Part shown: positions 1 to 13,643 of the stretch, piece by piece | Position numbering within the stretch: position 1 is the first letter of the stretch | Layout of the letters: every line of letters starts with the position of its first letter | Assembly (NCBI RefSeq): GCF_006345805.1 | Contig: NW_021826009.1 | Coordinates: forward strand, 1-13,643 | Length of the DNA: 13,643 nucleotides | Direction: 5' to 3' | Source of the DNA: Octopus sinensis | Taxonomy: Eukaryota | The notes under the pieces: model-generated | Told to the model about the DNA's origin: nothing | The model's input: only the letters and a program-made list of their open reading frames with translations | The model's database searches: none | Program-made: the position numbers and the translations under genes

Positions 1-102
1 AAGAAATGCCTACGAAAAAGACCACGGTACCTTGGTCAATATTGTTATATGTTTCCACATTTATTTGCAAGTGGGTAACCTCTGTTTTCAATTCTGGGTT
101 CA

Positions 103-112
103 TGATAGATAA

Positions 113-173
<61 letters not shown>

Positions 174-180
174 CAGACAG
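103..180 (+). repeat. (GATA)n/(GACA)n microsatellite
   Basis: Direct tandem GATA run ending in a few GACA units. Confidence 0.97.
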
Positions 181-188
181 ATATATAC

Positions 189-428
189 TATCATCGTTTT
201 ACGTCCGATTTTCATGCAGGCATGGGTTGGAAGGTTTGTCTGAGAACTGAACTGGTGAGCCAGAGACTGCACCAGGCTCAATCTGATCTGGCAAAGTTCC
301 TACAGCTGGATGCCCTTCCTAACGCCAACCACTCCGAGAGTGTAGTGGGTGCTTTTTCGAGCCACCGGCACGACGGTCAGTCAGGCCATTCTGACAATGA
401 GCACGCTCAAAAGCTGTTTTTACGTGCT
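189..428 (-). mobile_element. SINE-like interspersed repeat, 3' portion (family C, octopus-type)
   Basis: The minus strand reads ...GTTGGCGTTAGGAAGGGCATCCAGCTGTAG...GGACGTAAAACGATGATAG. I recognise this body plus short (GAT)-type tail as a common cephalopod repeat. There is only one copy in the window. Confidence 0.7.
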
Positions 429-448
429 ATATATGTGTGTGTATTAAG

Positions 449-722
449 AATGAGTAGTACCTGCATTTCAAAGGTGCAGCTTCGACACACTCTGCATCAC
501 CCTGAATCTCCCTGAGAATTACACTACACGTGTCTGTGGAGTGCTCAGCCATTTGCACAATAATTTCACGGGTAGGCTGTTCCGGTGATTGGATCAACAG
601 GAACCCCCGTCGTCTCCTTTATTAATTAAATTGAGCCGCTTGAAACGGCCGTAATTCCCCGAGCAGGCTGTTCCGTTGACTGGATCAACTGGATCTCTCG
701 ATGTCGTAACTGACAGAGTGCC
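449..722 (+). mobile_element. SINE-like repeat 3' portion (family D) with duplicated 3' segment
   Basis: The sequence GTACCTGCATTTCAAAGG...GTGTCTGTGGAGTGCTCAGCC...GGCTGTTCCG resembles a recurrent octopus repeat. Segment 561-614 is imperfectly repeated at 652-705, and the element runs into (TATC)n. Confidence 0.6.
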
Positions 723-723
<1 letters not shown>

Positions 724-801
<78 letters not shown>

Positions 802-841
802 CTCTATCTATTTATCTATCTATCTTATACATATATATATC

Positions 842-883
<42 letters not shown>

Positions 884-956
884 TACATATATATAGATAG
901 ATACATGTGTGTGTGCGTGTGTGTATGTACATGTGTGTGTGCGTGTGTGTGTATTC

Positions 957-992
<36 letters not shown>

Positions 993-1060
993 CATCTATC
1001 TATCTGTCTCTCTGTCTATCTATCCATTTGTCTGTCTGTATGTATGTATGTATGCATATG
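724..1060 (+). repeat. compound microsatellite (TATC)n-(TA)n-(TG)n-(TA)n-(TATG)n
   Basis: Seen directly. Confidence 0.97.
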
Positions 1061-1614
1061 CGTTTTTATATATTTAAACACACCCCTCAATCTCCATGTT
1101 TTTTATGTAAATAGTAATAAGGCCATTATTTGTGCATTATCCACAATATACGACTATTTTTTATAGATTGTTCAATAAGAGGATGAGTAGTGGTTGTTTC
1201 TTTGACCTTATGCTTGGTCCCTCGAGCCTCATATGATCGATAGATGTATTTTTATTTCTTTTTAATGCGTAGATTAAACATCCATCAGTGGCCGTCAGTC
1301 GGAAATGTGTTGGTATGGAGCGGGGTTGCGTGTCCAAAGCTTTGATGCTCGGTAAAAACGATTAAAGAGAAGTGGTTAATGCAGGGGGTATGTGCAGGAA
1401 ATATGCTTTCAGGACTGTGTTTTCAGCTGTGGGTGTGTATATATAGTAAAAACGGGTGGTTACTTCAAAGCAGTTGATGTCGCTGTTATATCAATTGAGG
1501 AAAGAGAGGAAGACAGAAAGGGAGAGAGAAACAGTAAGAGAGACAGAGGCAGATAGTCAATTAGTGAGAGAGAGAAAGAATAAACATTTCTGACGACTGT
1601 AATGTAATGATTAT

Positions 1615-1800
1615 TTTTCGGAAGAGTGGATCTCGAAGTGCATAAAGCTATATAAATAACAGTATATAAATACCGAGTTGAAAAATCGTTTTGGAAATTT
1701 GTAAACAATTCGACTTGTTATGTGCAAAAGGTTTTTCAATCCAATATTTGTATGCTTTTATTTGTAGCATCATGTGCTTCGAGATCCACTGTTCCAAAAG
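1615..1800. repeat. ~185 bp imperfect palindrome (fold-back/MITE-like)
   Basis: AGTGGATCTCGAAG (1625-1638) is the exact reverse complement of CTTCGAGATCCACT (1777-1790). TTGAAAAA/TTTTTCAA pair further in. The centre is AACAATTCGACTTGTT (1704-1719). Confidence 0.8.
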
Positions 1801-2094
1801 AGAGTTGTTCTCTGTGTTATGCTATACGAATGAATGAATCAGTGTTTTTCGTTTTCGAAACGATCCTTTTGGCCTGGAATTTGGGGATGCGTAGAGATAT
1901 TCGCATAGGCAATTATCCACACTTTTAGGTACACAGAATATTGGCGGAATGTGCCAATAGTGACAGCATTACGATTTCTCCACAACAGACCCGATAGAGT
2001 TATATAAGAGACAAAGCAGAAATCGTTCACCGTTTTAGATATCAGCTGCCGAACGGATATTTCCAGGGTTTGTTCGTTTCAGGGTATCTAGGTG

Positions 2095-2367
2095 AACACA
2101 ACAAGCACATTATCACACACACAGACTCACATGCACACACACACAGACACACACATACTCACCAAACACAAACACACACTCATACATACAAACACATATA
2201 AATGTATATATATAAATGCATATATATATATAAATATATAAATATATACACATGCATACCTAAATATATATATATATATATACATACATAAACGCACGCA
2301 CACACACACACACACAACACACACACACACATATATTATATATATATCTATATATATATATATATAC
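2095..2367 (+). repeat. (CA)n/(TA)n compound microsatellite
   Basis: Seen directly. Confidence 0.95.
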
Positions 2368-2513
2368 ATATAAGAGAGTTACCGGTAAGTGAGCGGTAAC
2401 TCTCTTATATTTAAGTATAAATTTGTATTGTCTCCCTGGTTTTTTATGTGCTAAGCCACTTGGTGTTAAACTGATGGTATTATTAAATCAATGTCTAATT
2501 TTTCACCCTCATT

Positions 2514-2516
<3 letters not shown>
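2368..2516. mobile_element. short non-microsatellite insert in (TA)n starting with a perfect 17-bp hairpin; possible Penelope-like terminal repeat fragment
   Basis: ATATAAGAGAGTTACCG (2368-2384) pairs with CGGTAACTCTCTTATAT (2394-2410) around a 9-nt loop, and (TA)n flanks both sides. The PLE assignment is inference only. Confidence 0.4.
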
Positions 2517-2552
<36 letters not shown>

Positions 2553-2555
2553 CTC

Positions 2556-2872
2556 GTGTCTGCGCCCATGCTAGGGCACCGCCTCAAATAATTTTAGTTG
2601 ATGTAATCTACCCAAGTATTTACATTTTGTTATAAGATCCTTATACTTATTCCGTCGGAATTTTTGCCGAATGGCTAAGTCAAGAAGACGTTAACTGACC
2701 AACACCGATCGTCAGGTGGTGAAGGGGACAGATATAGAGATAAAGACATATTCACACACATTCACACGCACACACACATATATATATATATTTGTGTGTG
2801 TGTGTGTGTATGCATGTATATATAAAACTATATATATGGATGCGTACACATAAACAGTAATGGGCTTCGCAC
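2556..2872 (-). mobile_element. old diverged SINE copy (family B)
   Basis: CCCATGCTAGGGCACCGCCT...TACTTATTCCGTCGG...TTGCCGAATGGCTAAGT...GGGGACA aligns by eye to the reverse complement of 4445-4640. Confidence 0.75.
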
Positions 2873-3097
2873 TTATGTCCTAATGTCACGCACAATACGA
2901 GTGCAAGTTTATCCACACACATGTAGACAACATGCAAAGATATTAGCATTCATCAACCAATTTAGGTAACCAAAATCTGTAAATGCTCTCTTTTTTGCCT
3001 TAAACCAGTATCACCCGAGATCCCTATGAACCCTGGTGGGGAATGACACATAAGATTTTACATATCTATACATAATTCTTTAAAACATAATAAAACT

Positions 3098-3240
3098 ATT
3101 CTATCGGTCTCTCTTGCCGAACCGCTAAGTGACGGGGACGTAAACACACCAGCATCTGTTGTCAAGCGATGTTGGGGGGGACAAACACAGACACACAAAC
3201 ATATACATATATGCATATATATATGTACCTTTCATAGTTT
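3098..3240 (-). mobile_element. SINE family B fragment; left arm of a near-perfect inverted duplication
   Basis: Reverse complement of 4412-4557, apart from about 3 substitutions and homopolymer/TA length changes. Confidence 0.9.
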
Positions 3241-3429
3241 ATATATATATATATACCTTTCATATATATATGTGTGTGTGTGTGTGTGTATTATGTCAGG
3301 TCACTTTCGAGTGCTACTGGTAACATGTAACCCAGTATAATCTGTTGCATGGTCGGGTCGTCGTCGACTAAACCGGCAACCCCACCAAAATATTAGATTT
3401 TTTAAACATCGGATGGCTGCGAGAAAACG

Positions 3430-4010
3430 CAGAAAAATAAATAGGGATGAAAGGGAGATAATCTTATTCAGAGAAATTAAAATTCTGAAGAGCTCTCATC
3501 AAGTCCAGCGAACGTAAAGAAATTAGAATATATTGTTACTATTTATAGCAGGTGAATCATTCTTTTAGTGGCTATTCCTACTTTGGAGGAGGATGCTCAA
3601 TGTAAATAGAAAACCTTTAACTATAATATCAATTTTATTAAATAGAAGCTAAGCAACGGCCCTTAAATATCAATGTGTTCTCCTTTCGTTTCAAGACGCC
3701 ATGCTGCGATGCTTATATAAGAAGCATTTATTGTTTGTCCTACAAAATACCAGCAAAGAATGTCAATCAAAAAAGCGACGATGGAATGACAGAATCTTCC
3801 TCGAAATCTCCTTTACGCAGAAAATCCTTGAGAATCTTAGGAAATTTTGAAGTAGCGGGATGTTACATATAACAGCTTTATCTAAACCAACATGGTTGTT
3901 GAATAATGAAAAGCCAGTGGAATGTAAATTATTGAGCCGTCGGCTAAATGAATTAGAAATATAACTGAATCTTACAATGTAGCGACAAAAATTTGAAACA
4001 CCTAAGATAA
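3430..4010 (+). pseudogene. heavily decayed non-LTR retrotransposon RT fragment (RTE-like)
   Basis: Collinear remnants occur across frames: VAIPTLEEDAQC (3568; cf. IIPIPKKGDL..C), ILLNR (3632), LSYKIPAKNVN (cf. L.AYGIP.KIVN), SDDGMTES (cf. SPDGETE) and ITALS (cf. DDIALLS). There are many stops and indels, and no intact YADD. Confidence 0.5.
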
Positions 4011-4125
4011 TTGAGTGTACAGGTGGAAGTACTAAATTAGTATCTGCTTCATATTTTTTTTCTTACTTTTATCTGGACCTCGGGGGCTTCTGGAAGTGTG
4101 GGACGTATCGGTAACCATGCGGTAA

Positions 4126-4310
4126 AAGGCGGCGAGCTGGCAGAAACGTTAGCACGCCGGGCGAAATGCTTGGCGGTATTTCGTCTGCGTTACGTTCTGA
4201 GTTCAAATTCCGCCGAGGTCGACTTTGCCTTTCATCCTTTAGGGGTCGATAAATTAAGTACCAGTTACGCACTGGGGTCGATGTAATCGACTTAATACCC
4301 ATGTCTGTCC
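4126..4310 (+). mobile_element. tRNA-derived SINE family A, 3'-truncated monomer
   Basis: Contains an A-box-like TGGCAGAAACG, a B-box-like GAGTTCAAATTC and the core GTCGACTTTGCCTTTCATCCTTT.GGGGTCGATAAA, which resembles the MetaSINE-type domain. It is highly similar to 5934-6118. Confidence 0.92.
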
Positions 4311-4411
4311 AACGTTTCGGAGCAAATACCAATAGGCATCGGGTCCCATATTCTCACGGGTCTGCAGATCTACCTCACTCGATTGGTGCTTGTTTTTGTT
4401 TGTGAAACTCA

Positions 4412-4653
4412 AAACTATGAAAGGTATATATATATATATATGCATATATGTATATGTTTGTGTGTCTGTGTTTGTCCCCCCAACATCGCTTGACAACAGT
4501 TGCTGGTGTGTTTACGTCCCCGTCACTTAGCGGTTCGGCAAGAGGGACCGATAGAATGAGTACTAGGTTGACAAAGAATAAGTCCTAGGGTCGATTTGCT
4601 CGACTAAGGCGGTGCTCCAGCATGGCCCAGTCAAATGGCTAAAGCAAATAAAA
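4412..4653 (+). mobile_element. SINE family B, 3' portion
   Basis: Reads GTGTTTACGTCCCCGTCACTTAGCGGTTCGGC...GGCGGTGCTCCAGCATGGCC followed by an A-rich end. It is homologous to 2556-2872 and 3098-3240. Confidence 0.88.
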
Positions 4654-4654
4654 A

Positions 4655-4760
4655 TACAACACACACACATAACATCATACATATATATATATATATATAT
4701 AATATATATTATATATATAATATATATATTATATATATAAAACACACACGACACGCACAG
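4655..4760 (+). repeat. (CA)n/(TA)n microsatellite
   Basis: Seen directly. Confidence 0.93.
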
Positions 4761-5059
4761 TGACAGAAAGAGAAATTGATAAATAGACAATTGAATAAAA
4801 CAGGGAAATTTTAGTCCCGGACATCCTTGTCCTGGATTGTTTCTGGAACATGTTAGTAGGGTGGAGAGGATCTCTGCGGTTTTGTGTATGCATTATTGGA
4901 CCTAAAGTCTTAGGTTCTGTAATCGCCAGAGAGCTGACTTTCTGGTGCATGGGTGGCGAGCATAGAGGCCTCAGGCGCAGGCTCGTATAAAGTGGATCGC
5001 AAGTGCAGTAACCTCATGCATGAGCATTCTGTATTTTGTATGAGCACTGGTTAGTGTTG

Positions 5060-5800
5060 GTCTCATTCGGTCACGAGTGGACAGCCATCGTATATACGAT
5101 CTTCGATATATCATTAATTTCGATATATCATTACCCAATGGAAAGGATATTCCGGTTGTCACAAGCTACCGACGTTTCCTAGTATGCGACATAATGTTAC
5201 TTCTAGAACCAGTAATGCCGGAGACAGCTATTCTTCTATTCCTGAATTGAGTATATCCATTCGGAACGCAAAAGATAGTAATCTACAATATCAATTCTTA
5301 TGTTCAATGTACCAGTATTTTATTTTGTTTAGCAAAGAATTCGTATGTAAAGAATCTGCGTTACTTTCATTCCGGGCGATTACACTGGACACTAACGTAG
5401 AGTAAGGAATTATGTCGTTAAGAATCTATTTACTAATGATTATTATATCAGATTTTGGTAGCGTTAATAAGTTTAGATGTTGCTTTCGATTAAACTCTAT
5501 CTTTTGTATCTTAACGGTCACAATCTTCTCTTGTTTCGGCGTTAATGTCGTCGAAACAAGTGAAATCATTTTATATGTTGTAGTGATGGTGTTGGAGATT
5601 AAGCTACGGTAGGTTTGTTTATCAATTTCGTAGAGATCTTTTGTTATCTCTGTCAGTACGAAAAGCATTTTCTTTATTTCATTTGTTTTTCTTTTAGATT
5701 TCATTCTTACTATAGTTCATGTGTTGACTGCTTCGATTTAATGTTTTATAGAATTCAGAAAAGACTTTTCTGCGTAGGTGAAGACATACTCTTATTTAAA
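5060..5800 (-). pseudogene. decayed Penelope-like element (PLE) reverse transcriptase
   Basis: Ordered motifs on the minus strand: AEKSFLNSIK; KMLFVLTEITKDLYEIDKQTYRSLISNTITTTYK (cf. VFADKTRNLYE...Y..LL..NIT.TYK); LLTLPKSDIIIISK*IL (cf. RLINPAKSE.G.ISK.IL); IDIVDYY at 5275-5295 (cf. FDIVDFYPSI); NIMSHTRK at 5175-5198 (cf. IIMHARKS); and a frameshifted GLYRDDGL-like remnant at ~5082-5102. Confidence 0.75.
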
Positions 5801-5933
5801 GAAAATCGAACTCACATACATAAGGTGTGTGTTTTGTTTATACACCTCGAGCTATTCTCATTCGTATTTGGACACTCCCATCTGTTTCATTCGGTGGACC
5901 GTACCAGACCCCCTACCTATTAATGTTGTGTAT

Positions 5934-6166
5934 AAGGCGGCGAGCTGGCAGAATCGTTAGCACGCCGGGCGAAATGCGTCGCCGTATTTCGTCTGCCGTT
6001 ACGTTCTGAGTTCAAATTCCGCCGAGGTCGACTTTGCCTTTCATCCTTTCGGGGTTGATAAAGTAAGTACCAGTTACGCACCGGGGTCGATATAATGGAC
6101 TTAATTCGTTTGTCTGTCCTTGTATGTCCCCTCTGTGTTTAGCCCCTTGTGGGCAGTAAAGAAATG
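5934..6166 (+). mobile_element. full-length tRNA-derived SINE family A monomer with 16-bp TSD
   Basis: Has the head AAGGCGGCGAGCTGGCAGAATCG, a B-box, the core and the 3' end GTAAAGAAAT. The perfect TSD TATTAATGTTGTGTAT lies at 5918-5933 and 6167-6182. Confidence 0.96.
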
Positions 6167-6198
6167 TATTAATGTTGTGTATCTGACTTTCAAACCCG

Positions 6199-6468
6199 TG
6201 CCCGTGGTATATTTAAAAGATTACACAGATTTACGTATGACACATTTTTAAGGATCCTGATTTCGATTCCTGGTTCGGCTAGTTCGTTACTTTCACCATA
6301 TTTCAACTCCACTCATCTGCAGATAAATTCCAGAAATACATGGTAAGTTTAGTCTGCGACTAACTGGTGTACTGTTCAGAGCGAATGTTGGAATCTCAGT
6401 CAATTTTTACCTTATAAAAACCAGGGTAAACTCCGGATTTATGAGGCCTATGGCTCAAGAGAGACCCA
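6199..6468 (+). mobile_element. ancient tRNA-SINE remnant, possibly with V-like central domain
   Basis: B-box-like GATTTCGATTCCTGG near 6259. CTGCGACTAACTGGTGTACTGTTCAG resembles CTGCGATGGACTGGCGTCCCGTCCAG, followed by AAACCAGGGTAAACTCCGG...ATGAGGCCTATGGCTC. Confidence 0.45.
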
Positions 6469-6587
6469 AGGCCTAGTAATTACAACTGAGGCAGCCAAGC
6501 ATTTGAGAGGACACGCAATACGTTGCTTTTGACCTAAGCCATTTTTAGGTTAAGTTGAAACTCTAACTCTATTTCTGGTTTAGTGTG

Positions 6588-6677
6588 ATGGCAGTATTTC
6601 TTCCAACTCTTCACGTTCTGAGTTCAAATTGCCCCAATGTCAACTTTGTTTTGCGTTCATTCGGCGTCCGGAAAATA
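6588..6677 (+). mobile_element. old diverged family A SINE fragment (B-box and core)
   Basis: GTATTTC...ACGTTCTGAGTTCAAATT...GTCAACTTTG matches the family A body. Confidence 0.7.
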
Positions 6678-6764
6678 TTGGTTTTACAAAATGTATAAAC
6701 AAGGATACACTATATTTGTAACTTCATATTTCACTGAATTTTCTTGTCATTTCTAAATATTTTA

Positions 6765-6835
6765 AGTGGAGAGCTGGCAGAATCTTCAGAGCATAGGAAA
6801 AATAAAGCCTTGTGGTATATGTTCCGGTTCTTGAC
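6765..6835 (+). mobile_element. old diverged family A SINE head fragment
   Basis: AAGTGGAGAGCTGGCAGAATC matches the family A 5' end. Confidence 0.65.
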
Positions 6836-6954
6836 GAGGGGTGTATGAAAAGTTTTAAGCCTTCAAGACCTTTGAGCCTTGAAATCTTGTACCTTCATCA
6901 GAAGTCTTGTTCCATTTTTTTTTAGGCTCAAGACTTCTGACGAAAGTCTTTGTA
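6833..6954. mobile_element. possible degenerate mariner-type MITE remnant
   Basis: The left end ACGAGGGGTGTATGAAAAGTTTTAAGCCT resembles mariner TIRs. The right end AGGCTCAAGACTTCT...TTTGTA is a partial inverted match ending in TA. Confidence 0.4.
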
Positions 6955-7051
6955 TATTAAGTTTTCTTAATCCGGCGTGGTTAACTTTGCTTCGCGTCAT
7001 TTTCCAAAACACAACCCCCCACCCCACCCCAGAAATATATGGGCGTTTATC

Positions 7052-8538
7052 TGTTACTTTATTACCCTCAAGGGGTTAAACATAGAGAGAATAAACAAGG
7101 TCAGACAAACGGATTGAATCGATTACATCGACCCCAGTGCGTAACTGGTACTTAATTCATCGACCCCGAAAGGATGAAAGGCAAAGTCGACCTCGGCGGA
7201 ATTTGAACTCAGAACGTAGCGACAGACGAAATACCTATTTCTTTACAACCGACAAGGGGCTAACCCAGAGGGGAAAAACAAGGACAGACAAACGGATTAA
7301 GTCGATTACATCGACCGCAGTGCGTAACTGGTACGTAATTTATCGACCCCGAAAGGATGAAAGGCAAAGTCGACCTCGGCGGAATTTGAACTCAGATCGT
7401 AACGGCAGACGAAATACCTATTTCTTTACAACCCACAAAGGGCTAAACACAGAGGGGAAAAACAAGGACAGACAAACGGATTAAGTCGATTACATCGACC
7501 CCTGTGCGTAACTGGTACTTAATTTATCGACCCCGAAAGGATGAAAGGCAAAGTCGACCTCGGCGGAATTTGAACTCAGATCGTAACGGCAGACGAAATA
7601 CCTATTTCTTTACAACCCACAAAGGGCTAAACACAGAGGGGAAAAACAAGGACAGACAAACGGATTAAGTCGATTACATCGACCCCTGTGCGTAACTGGT
7701 ACTTAATTTATCGATCCTGAAAGGATGAAAGGCAAAGTCGACCTCGGTGGAATTTGAACTCAGATCGTAACGGCAGACGAAATACCTATTTCTTTACAAC
7801 CCACAAAGGGCTAAACAAAGAGGGGAAAAACAAGGACAGACAAACGGATTAAGTCGATTACATCGACCCCAGTGCGTAACTGGTACGTAATTTATCGACC
7901 CCGAAAGGATGAAAGGCAAAGTCGACCTCGGCGGAATTTGAACTCAGATCGTAACGGCAGACGAAATACCTATTTCTTTACAACCCACAAAGGGCTAAAC
8001 ACAGAGGGGAAAAACAAGGACAGACAAACGGATTAAGTCGATTACATCGACCCCAGTGCGTAACTGGTACTTAATTTATCGACCCCGAAAGGATGAAAGG
8101 CAAAGTCGACCTCGGCGGAATTTGAACTCAGATCGTAACGGCGGACGAAATACCTATTTCTTTACAACCCACAAGGGGCTAAACACAGAGGGCACAAACA
8201 AGGACAGACAAACGGATTAAGTCGATTACATCGACCCCGAAAGGATGAAAGGCAAAGTCGACTTCGGTGGAATTTGAACTCAGATCGTAACGGCAGACGA
8301 AATACCTATTTCTTTACTGCCCACAAGGGGCTAAACATAGAGGGGACAAACAAGGACAGACAAACGGATTAAGTCGATTACATCGACCTCAGTGCGTAAC
8401 TGGTACTTAATTTATCCACCCCGAAAGGATGAAAGGCAAAGTCGACCTCGGCGGAATTTGAACTCAGAACGTAACGGCAGACGAAATACGGCTACGCATT
8501 TCGCCCGGCGTGCTAACGGTTCTGCCAGCTCGCCGCTT
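7052..8538 (-). mobile_element. family A SINE multimer: one complete head plus 8 tandem 184-bp body units, 14-bp TSD
   Basis: GAAATAC recurs at 7228, 7411, 7595, 7779, 7963, 8147, 8299 and 8483 (spacings 183, 184, 184, 184, 184, 152, 184). The 5' head occurs only at 8490-8538. The TSD TATGGGCGTTTATC lies at 7038-7051 and 8539-8552. Confidence 0.96.
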
Positions 8539-8630
8539 TATGGGCGTTTATCGTAACCAGAAGGGATTTATTGAACTAGCTGCGGAGCTTCTTCTTCGTT
8601 GCTCGTTGCAGTAGAAATAACGATAGCAAT

Positions 8631-8670
8631 AACAACAACAACAACAACAGCAACAACAACAACAACAACA
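8631..8670 (+). repeat. (CAA)n microsatellite
   Basis: Seen directly. Confidence 0.95.
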
Positions 8671-8829
8671 AAGTCAAATTACTTTATAGACAGAAGCTGA
8701 AAACTTACGAATTTTTAACGAAATTCTTCTGTAAAAGTAGTTGGATAGTTTTGTCTTTTTCTCGTTTTCGTCATTGAAATAATTTAATATCCATGCTTCG
8801 ATGACCTTGTGGCAAATACTCAAAAAGAT

Positions 8830-9305
8830 CCTTTTTCTTGTTATTCATCATCTGCTTCTTTACTTTTTACGTTTTGTATTCTTCTTTTCTTGCGTTTTGT
8901 TCTCTTTCTACTTTTGTTCCATTTTCCTTATTCTTTTGGTTTTCGCATTTTTCTCTATCCTTTTTTTTTTTGCTCCGTCCATTTTCTTTATCTTCTTTGC
9001 CTCCATCTTGTTCAAGGTTTTCTACATTTTCGTTTTCAAAGTTGTCTTTGTTATTTCCGTTTTCTTTTTATTTTTTACTTTATTTCTTCCATATTCTTCT
9101 TCTTCTTCTTCTTCTTCTTCTTCTTCTTCTTCTTCTTCTTCTTCTTCTCTTCTTCTTCTTCTTCTTCTTCTTCTTCTTCTCTTCTTCTTCTTCTTCTTCT
9201 TCTTCCTCTTCTCTTCCTCTTCTTCTCCTCCTTCTTCTTCCTCTTCTCCTCCCCTCTCTCCCTCATCCTCCTTCCTTTCTCATTCTCATTTTTATCCTTT
9301 TGTTT
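8830..9305 (+). repeat. polypyrimidine tract: pure (TTC)n core (~9094-9205) with decayed flanks
   Basis: Seen directly. A-depletion explains the stop-free ORFs in all three plus frames. Confidence 0.93.
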
Positions 9306-9855
9306 AGTCTCGCTTCTTCCAACAAACAACGAATTCTCGCATGTACGTAACAAAATTATTTACAAATTTGTTTAAGACATCGTTGATATCGATATAATTA
9401 TGTTTTCCAGCGAATAACGAAATTTCATTTCCGAACAATGCATTGCATTTAATCTAGGCGAAATGGTTTTAGCGAAAATTGCAGAAACTGTAAATATCCG
9501 CCGGAAAAAAGAAGCAATTTTTTAGCCTTATCTTTTTCAAAAATTTTCAGCGAAAATACATCGACTTTACTAGTTCAATATGTATTTGTGAGTTTGGTTT
9601 TCTATTCTACTCTCTTCCATATTTTCATTTTATTTCTAATTCCAGAATTATAGAACTTTTGAGTGTTAATTTAGAATATTCAAAATATGTAAATGATATT
9701 GAAAAGTACGAATAAAAGTTAAAATAAAATTACCGCGGTAATTGTGTTCACACGTACGCATGCTTCGATGTGTATGTGTGTGAGTATGTGCGTGTATATG
9801 AGGGGGGGTGTAGGTCTTCGTAGTTCTTTCATTTCAGTTATTCGTGTCAAAACAG

Positions 9856-10373
9856 AACTCTGCCGAGGTCGACTTGGCCTTTCATCCTTTCGGGGTCAAT
9901 TAAATAAAGTACCAGTTTCGCACTGAGGTCGATGTAATCGACTTAATCCCTTTGTCTGTTCTTTTTTGTCCCCTCTATGTTTAACCCCTTGTCGGCAGTA
10001 AAGAAATAGGTATTCGTCTGCCGCTACGTTCTGAGTTCAAATTCCGCCAAGGTCGACTTTGCCTTTCATCCTTTCGGGGTCGATAAATAAAGTACCAGTT
10101 TCTCACTGGGGTCGATGTAATCGACTTAATCCGTTCGTCTATCCTTGTTTGTCCCCTCTGTGTTTAGCCCCTTGTGGGTAGTAAAGAAATAGGTATTCGT
10201 CTGCCGCTACGTTCTGTGTTCAAATTCCGCCAAGGTCGACTTTGCCTTTCATCCTTTCGGGGTCGATAAATTACGTACCAGTATCGCACTGGGGTCGATG
10301 TAATCGACTTAATCCCTTTGTCTCTTCTTGTTTGTCTCCTCTATGTTTAACCCCTTGTCGGCAGTAAAAAATA
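9856..10373 (+). mobile_element. family A SINE multimer, 5'-truncated, 3 tandem ~183-bp units, 17-bp TSD
   Basis: The junction AAGAAATAGGTATTCGTC occurs at 10001 and 10184. The TSD is TATTCGTGTCAAAACAG (9839-9855) / TATTCCTGTCAAAACAG (10374-10390), with one mismatch. Confidence 0.94.
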
Positions 10374-11029
10374 TATTCCTGTCAAAACAGCATTTCTTGT
10401 TTAACCACAGGTCAGCCGAACTCAGCATATCTATAATCATAGGCGTCCCAAAAGAAATTATCCTGTCCCCTACTCTTTTGCATTGTTTTGGTATTTCTCA
10501 GACTATAATCATTAACAAGTCTTTTTTTAAAGAATTAGTTTGTTAGTTAAAAGAAACTGGTTGTTATTGCACGGGGATATAACGACCATCTAATCCTGGA
10601 TGTTGTATTAATAACGTTCGTATTTTCTCTAATCCAATCCCGAACAATGTTCTTATAAGTACATCTAAGAAGGGGGAATGGAATAGATATATTTTTTAAT
10701 TAATATAACGGCCATCATGTGTATAATTGCTTATGGAATTATACCCCATGCCTCCCTAAAATTTTTGATTTTCAAATTGTTAATATTTCTGGTTCAAAAT
10801 ACAGCATTCATTGCGCTGGTCAAATAAAACCAGTACATGTTTCTCGCATCCACTGATTGGTTTAAAAATCAAATAAAGTTCTATTTCTACAGCAATTTCT
10901 AAATTTTGAACGATCCTCAGGACACACGTGACCGGTTTCTGTCGGAATAGTTATACATATTATAATAAAACATTCGTCTTGCATTATAGCTCGTCATAAA
11001 GTTTCTAATTCTGGAAGGAATAATATCAG

Positions 11030-11590
11030 TTAAAGGATTTCTAGTTTAAGGAGGGTTCGTTGCATATGATTTTACAACGAGGTAGACTCAGCCAATGTTA
11101 TACACATTTCTGAATTTTACAGCTGCCGAGAGCAGAAGAAACAACATTGACCTCTTTGGAGGTGTTCGACATTCAGTCTCATCAAGTGTCAATAAATCGA
11201 TCGATATGTTTCTTGATATACAAACAAAGACAGATGTATCACAAATATAAAAATCGATCGTGGAACACTTTTTTTTTCCTGTGGTTCTAACATATTGATT
11301 TTTTTTTCAGGTTTACATAATACTGTGCGTGATAATATTGTCTATGTACGCATATATGTACATATATATATCTATATCTATATATATATTATATAGATAT
11401 ATATATATATATATGTATATATGTATATATATATATATATAATATATATATACATAGATATATGTGTTTGCCTGTAAATTTATATATATATAATATATAT
11501 ATATAAATTTACAGACAAACAAAAGACGAACTATTTATATATTTAAACTTATTTATATATATATAATATATTTCTATAAGTATATATATA

Positions 11591-11626
<36 letters not shown>

Positions 11627-12119
11627 GCATGTATGTACGTATATATTATATAAGTATATATATATATATAATATATATATACCTGTAGGTAAATAGAAAA
11701 ATTATTCGTTGAATCGTTCGTTGTGGCATAGGAAAACTATTTCATGCGATTTCTTCATATCTTCCGGTTCTGCATTGCAAGTTCGTCTCCCACAATTGCA
11801 GACTGGTCGACTAAAACATTAGCTCCCAGATTGCTGGCCTCGTATCGATTTTCGAATGAAATACAATCACAAAGTATGGAAAGCCAACCGATGTCATACT
11901 CACTGGTTTTCGTTTTTATATTCATAAATTTAACGCTAGGTAAATCCCGAACGAGATTATCTGCGACTAGCATGTTTCATTTAGAATCAACCAGCGTTTC
12001 TCTCACAGAAATTGGAGGTAAAAGTTTTTTTTAGATGCTGTATTTTCTACTTTCACTATGAATATTTTTTCTCTGTCTTTTCCTATTTCATTCACATCAT
12101 TCAGAAATCTGTTCGCCAT
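11030..12119 (-). pseudogene. decayed Crypton/DUF3504-like tyrosine-recombinase element, split by a (TA)n block
   Basis: Ordered remnants on the minus strand: MANRFLNDVNE (ATG at 12119; cf. MASRF..VSE); FMNIKTKTSEYD (cf. F...RKKDG.EYE); NRYEASNLGANVLVD (cf. RYL......NIL.D); AEPEDMKKSHE at 11741-11773 (cf. I.PED.KKLYE); TIQRIIF (cf. LQRKVFF). After the microsatellite come LLSAAVKFRNVYNIG (within 11091-11141) and KSYATNP (cf. TGH.S..SLKSY). Stops and frameshifts are present. Confidence 0.6.
11345..11681 (+). repeat. (TA)n-rich low-complexity block
   Basis: Seen directly. Confidence 0.95.
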
Positions 12120-12269
12120 CAATTTCCGAGATATTGACTAGATTTCGAATAAATTTTTTATACTATGAATTGTATTCCGTACGAGATAGCAGTATTGATT
12201 ATGATGCATTACTTCACGTTGTTGATAAAAAAAAAAACGCCATTTATAATTTATACTTTAAACATAATC

Positions 12270-12422
12270 ATGTGTGCGTGTGTGTTGTGTGTGTTGTGTG
12301 TGTAGGCGTCTTTCTGTATATGTATCTCTAAGCACACATACATATATATATACACACACACCACACACACACACATATATATATTTTCAGAATATATATA
12401 TATGTATATATATATGTATATA

Positions 12423-12459
<37 letters not shown>

Positions 12460-12860
12460 TATATTATATATATATATATAATATATATTATATTATAATA
12501 TATATATATATTTATATATATATACATATATATACATACATACACACAAATATATATAATATATATCACACGTTTATATAAATAAATTGTACTTTATATA
12601 TAGCATATACATATAATAGTATATAATCAATGTAAATATAGATATTTACATACATAATGTATGTGTATTAATAGCTATGTCTATATACGAATGTGTAAAT
12701 ATATATTAACATTTGTACAATTATACACGCAAATACAAACACACATACACATACACCACACAGATACACACACTCACTAGAACCACTCAAACACACATAT
12801 ACACTTAAATTACAAATATCCGTCTATATAGGCATACATATATATATTACATATGCATAC

Positions 12861-12910
<50 letters not shown>

Positions 12911-13200
12911 ATATATATATATATTTAGAGAGAAAGAGAGAGAGATAGAGAGAAAGACAGAGGGAGAGAGATACTTAAATTTTTAAAAATATTTGTACAC
13001 ACATAAACACACATATTTACACACATATATATACATATATATACTGATATATACAATTAGATTACTAAATATAACGTATATATGTATGTCTGTAAATATA
13101 TATATATGTGTGTGCGTGTGTGTGTGTGTGTGTTTGTGTGTGTATTTATATTATTTATATACACTCACATTCACACACACCCAAATACGCAGACACAGAG
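12270..13200 (+). repeat. long compound (TG)/(CA)/(TA)/(GA) microsatellite field
   Basis: Seen directly. Confidence 0.95.
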
Positions 13201-13594
13201 AAAAAGACATCCTTACACGTTTGTTTGTTGTTGTTGTTGATTTTTTCTGTGGAACCCTTTCTGATCTTGAATACTGATGTGTTTTTATCTTTCTTGGAGG
13301 GTGATTGTCTTCAAAATTTATAACCTTATCTCGTCGCTAACGTCATTTTTTTTCGGATAGGAAACGAACACATCCATTAATAAAATCTTGAATAAAGAAA
13401 ATTGAACGTAGCAACCTATTATATCGTTATTCTGTTCTTTCGTTCATTTTACAAAAGAAATCTTCTGCGCTTTAAATTTTTCACAACCACCTCTGCAAAG
13501 CAGGAAAAAAAAACAGCAAAGAATAAGTATACCAGATATTTTTAGTTGTTTCTGCGATCTGATAATTTAAAATGTAATGTCTGTTTTGAAAGTG

Positions 13595-13643
13595 TAAGCC
13601 AATAATGGCCGAAGTTTGAAACCGGAAGCCACTAAAGCCGGCT
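13595..13643. promoter_or_regulatory. possible edge of a housekeeping-type promoter (CCAAT, YY1-like, ETS-like motifs)
   Basis: GCCAAT (13598-13603), AATAATGGCCG and ACCGGAAG (13621-13628) cluster within 35 bp where GC content rises at the window end. This rests on short motifs only. Confidence 0.25.

Follow-up and report, generated by a model that had tools for sequence, protein, structure and literature searches.

How can units of a SINE come to stand head to tail, always meeting at the same internal point, in arrays that are each bounded by a single pair of target site duplications (TSDs)? This question is raised by a 13,643-nucleotide stretch of the Octopus sinensis genome (contig NW_021826009.1, positions 1 to 13,643; hereafter the window), in which a sequence-only reading had described two such arrays and, as a control, a monomer. 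All three were recovered together with their TSDs. The full-length monomer (5934..6166, plus strand) serves as the reference copy and lies between exact 16-bp TSDs at 5918..5933 and 6167..6182; its segment 5936-6166 is the ruler for all SINE positions given below. Array 1 (7052-8538, minus strand) consists of eight units with seven junctions and has exact 14-bp TSDs at its 5′ end (8539..8552) and 3′ end (7038..7051). Array 2 (9856-10373, plus strand) has three units, both junctions being short of one T, between 17-bp TSDs with one mismatch at 9839..9855 and 10374..10390. The window also harbors a 3′-truncated copy of the same SINE (1-184; 4128..4310, plus strand), for which a TSD search found none, and decayed old fragments of the family at 6590-6670 and 6770-6830.

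By the appearance of its sequence, the element is probably a tRNA-derived SINE with a tRNA-like head. Of its 231 bp, positions 1-48 form the head, 49-166 the central part, which includes the B box, and 167-231 a tail called A. A B-box-like GTTCAAATTC is visible together with D-arm-like and anticodon-like hairpins, and ARAGORN and Rfam returned no match. The SINE is short, dispersed and of high copy number, a 24-nt head-core pattern having 39,636 exact matches in the 2.72-Gb genome. TSDs of variable length, typical of SINEs, are found in 43 of 65 A monomers (median about 16 bp), against a chance level of 4 in 300 trials when flanks were paired across different loci. Tail A subtypes tag, taa, caa, and cag were distinguished, and the family has three older tail types, labeled B1, B2, and B3 in this analysis, which either stand alone or form the final unit of an array. 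Every tail type has, around CTTGT close to the 3′ end, a small hairpin that the reverse transcriptase may recognize. Probably, the monomer is already catalogued as a family, and it may well be one of OK, OR1, and OR2, reportedly tRNA-derived octopus SINEs going back to Ohshima and Okada in 1994. These names occur in PMC4758252 and PMC5804259, with OR2 listed as a CORE-SINE; in the portions covered of these two papers and of PMC9795677 and PMC3531059, only family names are relevant here.

The arrays were surveyed in 1.4 Mb of parsed tiles, comprising five 200-kb blocks of C1 picked because they are dense in junctions, twenty 10-kb tiles picked blind from C10-C29, and one C3 block. Added to the tiles were 26 of 30 loci from the list of J1 matches (four overlapping ones were left out) and 30 loci in which J1 runs into a B3 tail. 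The tiles hold 298 elements; tail A is present in 130, of which 63 are multimers (41 dimers, 11 trimers, 5 of four units, and 6 longer), five of them with 6-9 units. This share of 63/130 comes from tiles picked mostly for junction density and compares with 3/16 in the blind tiles. In both arrays of the window, the 3′ end is joined to the same internal point, as the sequence-only reading had noted. This junction, J1, connects tail A to SINE position 48/49. AGGTATT with at most one mismatch is found at 92 of the 103 J1-class junctions in the tiles, and a 24-nt J1 pattern gave 24,240 exact genome matches, its reversed control none. The claim of a fixed position thus holds for J1, which recurs at one point, but J1 is not the sole fixed junction: J2, from tail A to head position 15 and mainly with caa tails, has 2,408 exact matches. 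A predicted hairpin between the tail end and 49-62 (z -2.0), which mimics the head hairpin, has J1 in its loop, and the reference unit contains no T4 terminator. In one locus (L087), two junctions carry TTAGGG-like insertions of about 12 bp inside J1, like telomere repeats added there.

The account that we consider probable combines RNA-guided self-insertion, some one-step multimers, and local growth. The SINE RNA would not stop at its tail but include the initial letters of the next unit, and this extension would pair with genomic sites starting GGTATT to prime reverse transcription, so that the best sites would be the SINE copies themselves. New copies would land at position 48 of older copies, rebuilding the same junction each time, and in most insertions the 5′ side would be joined through homology to the resident head, so that a single head is left. 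Every new multimer could be transcribed and thus feed back by supplying more junction-bearing RNA. When such RNA primes at a later tail, or when the enzyme jumps between templates, a multimer may be inserted in one step, as appears to be the case for array 2. Afterwards, single units would be duplicated locally to give long uniform blocks such as that of array 1. The enzyme would be provided by a zf-RVT LINE that has tail A in common and inserts in (CTAT)n, and the first junction may owe its origin to the liking of the LINE endonuclease for NNTAT sites.

For a subset of loci, the order of old and new parts demonstrates insertion of the SINE at position 48 of its own older copies. Double heads, in which SINE 48-60 is followed by a full head no more than 14 letters away, number 101 (in about 78 loci); two other internal motifs, used as controls, gave 8 and 7. 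Among 25 of these double-head loci examined, 13 have a downstream J1 that repeats 8-16 letters of the upstream stretch, and the remaining 12 have no J1 under the pattern used. For example, inspection by eye of L180 and L186 reveals an old head, a short duplication, a new copy, the remainder of the old copy, and the old TSD outside, while in L178 and L190 the leftover head is retained without duplication. Furthermore, J1 running into a B3 tail has 148 exact matches in the genome. The terminal B3 unit is more diverged than its neighbor in 27 of 29 cases (0.125 vs. 0.041; lone B3 copies, 0.147), and so are 16 of 19 terminal B1 units and 7 of 8 terminal B2 units. The switch to the old subtype takes place within a few letters of J1: only about 3 of 29 still have A-type letters at 61-64. 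A B3-type head (T19+A36) is carried by 7 of 26 J1-to-B3 arrays and 23 of 32 lone B3 copies, vs. 1 of 69 A monomers. In 13 cases in which a B tail is followed by a next unit, none has the B tail joined to a headless unit at J1. Because old members stand behind a clean J1 and some arrays carry old heads, the outer TSD at the J1-to-B loci is best taken as a property of the older resident. The premise that one outer TSD means one insertion of the whole array is thereby lost: many arrays are younger copies inside older residents whose TSD came first, and the inner six units of array 1 have variants in common that are nearly absent elsewhere (see below). Where an A unit closes the array, no significant excess of older last units is seen (28 vs. 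17 of 49, p 0.13).

Double heads are scarce beside J1 (101 vs. 24,240 matches), and therefore a seamless, homology-based 5′ join must be assumed as the rule, a step that we infer rather than see. Homology-mediated 5′ joins are known from work on L1 and R2. A weak test, based on private stretches at 49-68 common to the first and last unit, gave 3 cases vs. 0.8 expected for 49-58 (p 0.04) and no significant result for 59-68.

Multimers are also inserted as such, as the arrangement of units makes clear for a few loci. Unit 1 of array 2 (9856..10009) is 5′-truncated and begins at about SINE position 80 directly after the TSD; since this first unit has no position 48, at least one junction arrived with the cDNA. 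A second 5′-truncated dimer starts at 72 and abuts an 18-bp TSD, and these two are the clear cases among 13 multimers flagged headless. The core of unit 2 (10010..10192) contains rare variants common to units 1 and 3, and its tail is unlike both at six sites; the tail of unit 3 (10193..10373) contains rare variants common to unit 1, with C216 found in 0 of 312 units outside the window. The template of array 2 may be either one multi-unit RNA or a jump between RNAs. A search of the genome for its siblings with an exact 40-mer, a query of little information at such divergence, returned only the locus itself.

Such truncated multimers abutting a TSD favor the view that most arrays were made in one step, either from multi-unit RNA (few multimeric sources, Pol III read-through, and priming at any tail) or by a template jump at 48-56 to the 3′ extension of another RNA, with self-insertion as a minor by-product. 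The lack of a T4 terminator and the position of J1 in a loop mimicking the head hairpin would suit this view, and template jumps from many old copies would equally yield unrelated terminal units. Moreover, the head is young in 15 of 26 J1-to-B3 arrays, and outer TSDs, in small numbers throughout, were found in 8 of these 15, in 5 of 26 lone B3 copies, and in 2 of 11 old-head arrays. TSD mismatch, likewise from small numbers, is 5.8% in J1-to-B1 arrays, 14.1% in lone B1 copies, and 5.2% in A monomers. These younger-looking TSDs of the young-head J1-to-B3 and the J1-to-B1 arrays fit one-step insertion better. However, nested copies with internal duplication and old B3-type heads with decayed TSDs are left unexplained. 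Rare changes common among terminal units do not exceed the lone-copy background; no sibling loci with common private terminal-unit changes were found among 29 B3, 19 B1, and 19 caa units, and a perfect TSD in 0 of 26 lone B3 copies gives little sign that old B3 RNAs were still inserting. As the route of most arrays, one-step insertion is therefore unlikely, if still to be reckoned with.

For RNA-guided self-insertion, the letters at the target are informative. It is very likely that the junction sequence is present in the transposed RNA, as had been proposed, because about half of the TSDs of tag/taa monomers start with the letters of the next unit. With the left TSD copy taken as target DNA, GGT, the first letters of the next unit, starts the TSD in 21 of 42 tag/taa elements vs. 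0 of 14 caa elements (Fisher p 0.0008; background 1.1%), and when only monomers are taken, in 17 of 32 of these J1-type subfamilies. The match to the next unit extends to nine letters at most. Elements with caa tails have mostly AAGAA or ATAT target starts, and J2. The left TSD of array 2 starts with TATTCGT, which equals its own T-deleted junction. The monomer in the window, which has an exact TSD, is not the clean control that it had been taken for: its target starts with TATT as the next unit does, a weak indication in a single copy.

Or the endonuclease alone may prefer GGTATT-like sites, the RNA ending at GAAAUA without any role in target choice. TAT is located within eight letters of the tail end in 26 of 41 elements without a GGT start vs. 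19% in the background, which may be a general TAT preference of the endonuclease; the related LINE inserts in (CTAT)n, and Tx1-type endonucleases set the target choice in the system treated in the part of PMC4494074 covered. But the GG start is confined to tag/taa, the caa elements having other starts and J2, and with a single enzyme, targets would not be sorted according to tail subtype, except if the subtypes had different partners, so that the endonuclease alone is an improbable cause.

Local growth is best seen in array 1 (all on the minus strand). Unit 1 (8306..8538), with tail subtype cag, is its sole head-bearing unit. Units 2-7 (7235..8305) are headless and 184 bp long, except that unit 2 is reduced to 152 bp by a 32-bp internal deletion; the terminal unit 8 (7052..7234) has tail subtype taa and an 11% distance to unit 7. 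A69 and T220 are common to units 2-7 and are absent from units 1 and 8; elsewhere A69 occurs in 3 of 316 units and T220 in 2 of 312, and a 40-nt inner haplotype has three genome matches, all within array 1. Since the six inner units share private variants, array 1 is made of three distinct units, the rest having grown locally. These shared variants demonstrate local amplification rather than insertion of eight units, so the claimed insertion as a finished multimer stands for array 2 but not for all eight units of array 1. A T5 run in units 3-7 would stop Pol III. With six middle units shorter than the SINE, where at least four are asked for, array 1 has the form of a SINE-derived satellite. 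Indeed, most arrays of at least five units have near-identical neighbors, which bears out the earlier suggestion that loci are seeded and grow into minisatellites; in many short arrays, the distance between neighbors is like that of units from different loci (mean 0.10).

The near-identical blocks of long arrays, and the inner haplotype confined to array 1, would also suit arrays that arise solely when resident copies recombine or slip at the DNA level, the junction being spread by ectopic gene conversion. This accounts for growth but not for seeding, nor for the switch to an old subtype within a few letters of J1 or the TSDs on nested copies, and as the sole process it is very improbable. Hardly credible is the circular RNA that had been offered as a template, a 184-nt circle (positions 49-232) reverse-transcribed by rolling circle as in retrozymes: the tail end can pair with 49-62, bringing the ends together in a way that would suit ligation, and array 2 is headless with rare variants common to its units, but retrozyme arrays come from one template without a unique 5′ head, whereas the head, absent from such a circle, starts 57 of 63 multimers, tail subtypes are mixed in 34 of 47, and no self-cleaving ribozyme was found per unit, no Rfam family being matched at E up to 1 in 5800-10500, although an undescribed ribozyme would be compatible with this.

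The partner supplying the enzyme is likely a zf-RVT LINE. Tail A is identical in 41 of 50 columns to the 3′ end of an element inserting in (CTAT)n, whose last reading frame contains zf-RVT; a 3′ tail in common with a LINE, as expected of a SINE, is thus found for tail A. The zf-RVT domain and the microsatellite targets presumably place this LINE, available in 5′-truncated copies only, in the L1/Tx1 group. A search for a LINE partner of the B tails found none, and among 50 reverse-transcriptase loci none ends in tail A or B within the DNA examined, the matches there being SINE copies. The 5′-truncated ends of zf-RVT LINEs, whose 3′ region is long and rich in pyrimidines, are located in (CTAT)n (L195:8539-9080, minus strand; L285-L289), and several copies are 98% alike. 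Tandem copies of this LINE end are found in L288.

In contigs from four public sequencing runs, the 184-bp return joint was found in at least 20 contigs of organism B, at least 17 of C, and at least 14 of D, vs. 0 among the matches listed for organism E. In E, the depth of tail A is about a fifth, vs. about four fifths, of the core depth. At least 19 contigs of E reach the junction T, and J1 is therefore rarer in E rather than shown to be absent. B, C, and D each contain an edge of array 2; a contig of E fits from 10380 and continues with 61 further letters without a visible joint, which only hints at an empty site.

Tandem SINEs with one outer TSD pair and SINE-derived satellites are already known. 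In the bivalve Scapharca broughtonii, tandem HCD-SINEs form TSD-(SINE)n-TSD structures in about 3% of copies, for which unequal recombination was proposed (PMC11481361). To judge from the part of that paper covered, they resemble the octopus arrays in having one full head, headless repeat units, one outer TSD pair, and a mollusc host; they differ in that their inner units are without part of the tail, whereas the octopus units each have a full tail, belong to subfamilies of mixed age, and have targets matching the junction. Squamate satellites sSat1-3 likewise have tandem units that are shorter than the SINE, number from few to many at a locus, and vary between relatives, and they are attributed to unequal recombination and same-locus insertion; in the portion of PMC10702118 covered, the main text does not mention TSDs, and RNA-guided self-targeting as proposed for the octopus was not seen.

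Other systems share parts of the proposed process. Crocodilian SINEU is mobilized by Tx1-Mar, a target-preferring Tx1 LINE, and forms tandems by sequential insertion (PMC4494074, in part); its target is another transposon and its tandem copies are separated by TSDs, whereas the octopus SINE would target its own head with the junction carried in the RNA. In Drosophila, double insertions of R1, jockey, and P give dimers that are expanded by local exchange and become a source of satellites, but their tail-to-internal junctions, in the sections of PMC5932611 covered, are dispersed or contain foreign target DNA, while the octopus SINE reuses one position tens of thousands of times. For RTE-related retroposons, the TSD start follows the 3′ letters of the RNA, indicating pairing of the RNA tail with the target; as far as that part of PMC6007223 goes, one or two bases of a simple repeat are involved, compared with 3-9 letters of its own interior in the octopus SINE. 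An octopus repeat survey reports SINE expansion, and the part of PMC13282606 covered does not mention these arrays. A literature search, with subscription papers, Repbase, and Dfam outside it, found no description of these arrays and no earlier account of a SINE targeting its own head via read-through.

What the locus offers is a concrete and countable route from SINE to satellite, in which insertion seeds a dimer at a fixed junction and local duplication enlarges it. It suggests that the target site can be set by what a SINE RNA gains through 3′ read-through, a point that bears on target choice by non-LTR elements. A TSD around an array neither dates nor defines the array, and this affects age estimates of octopus SINEs and their use as presence-absence markers. 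Tentatively, and with slightly less than even confidence, a non-coding retroelement may have evolved RNA-programmed self-targeting, and the resulting loop may, since one recent lineage split, have remodeled a large part of a major octopus SINE family into multimers and given rise to seeded minisatellites; if true, the way from mobile element to minisatellite would feed itself.

Head-only minisatellites, composed of about SINE 1-63 plus a few A in 5-9 copies of 65-67 bp, were found at C3430:1639-2208, C1:195358955-195359246, and C7:15322784-15323080; apparently they have grown from double-head insertions. A second, looser clustering is seen in the tiles and in L166, L170-L172, L177, and L184, in which one family member often directly follows the ATT-rich tail of another. 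Within the window, two copies of another repeat, at 3107-3205 (minus strand) and 4457-4650 (plus strand), have the short motifs TGTTTGTCCCC and GGGGTCGAT in common with the SINE family.
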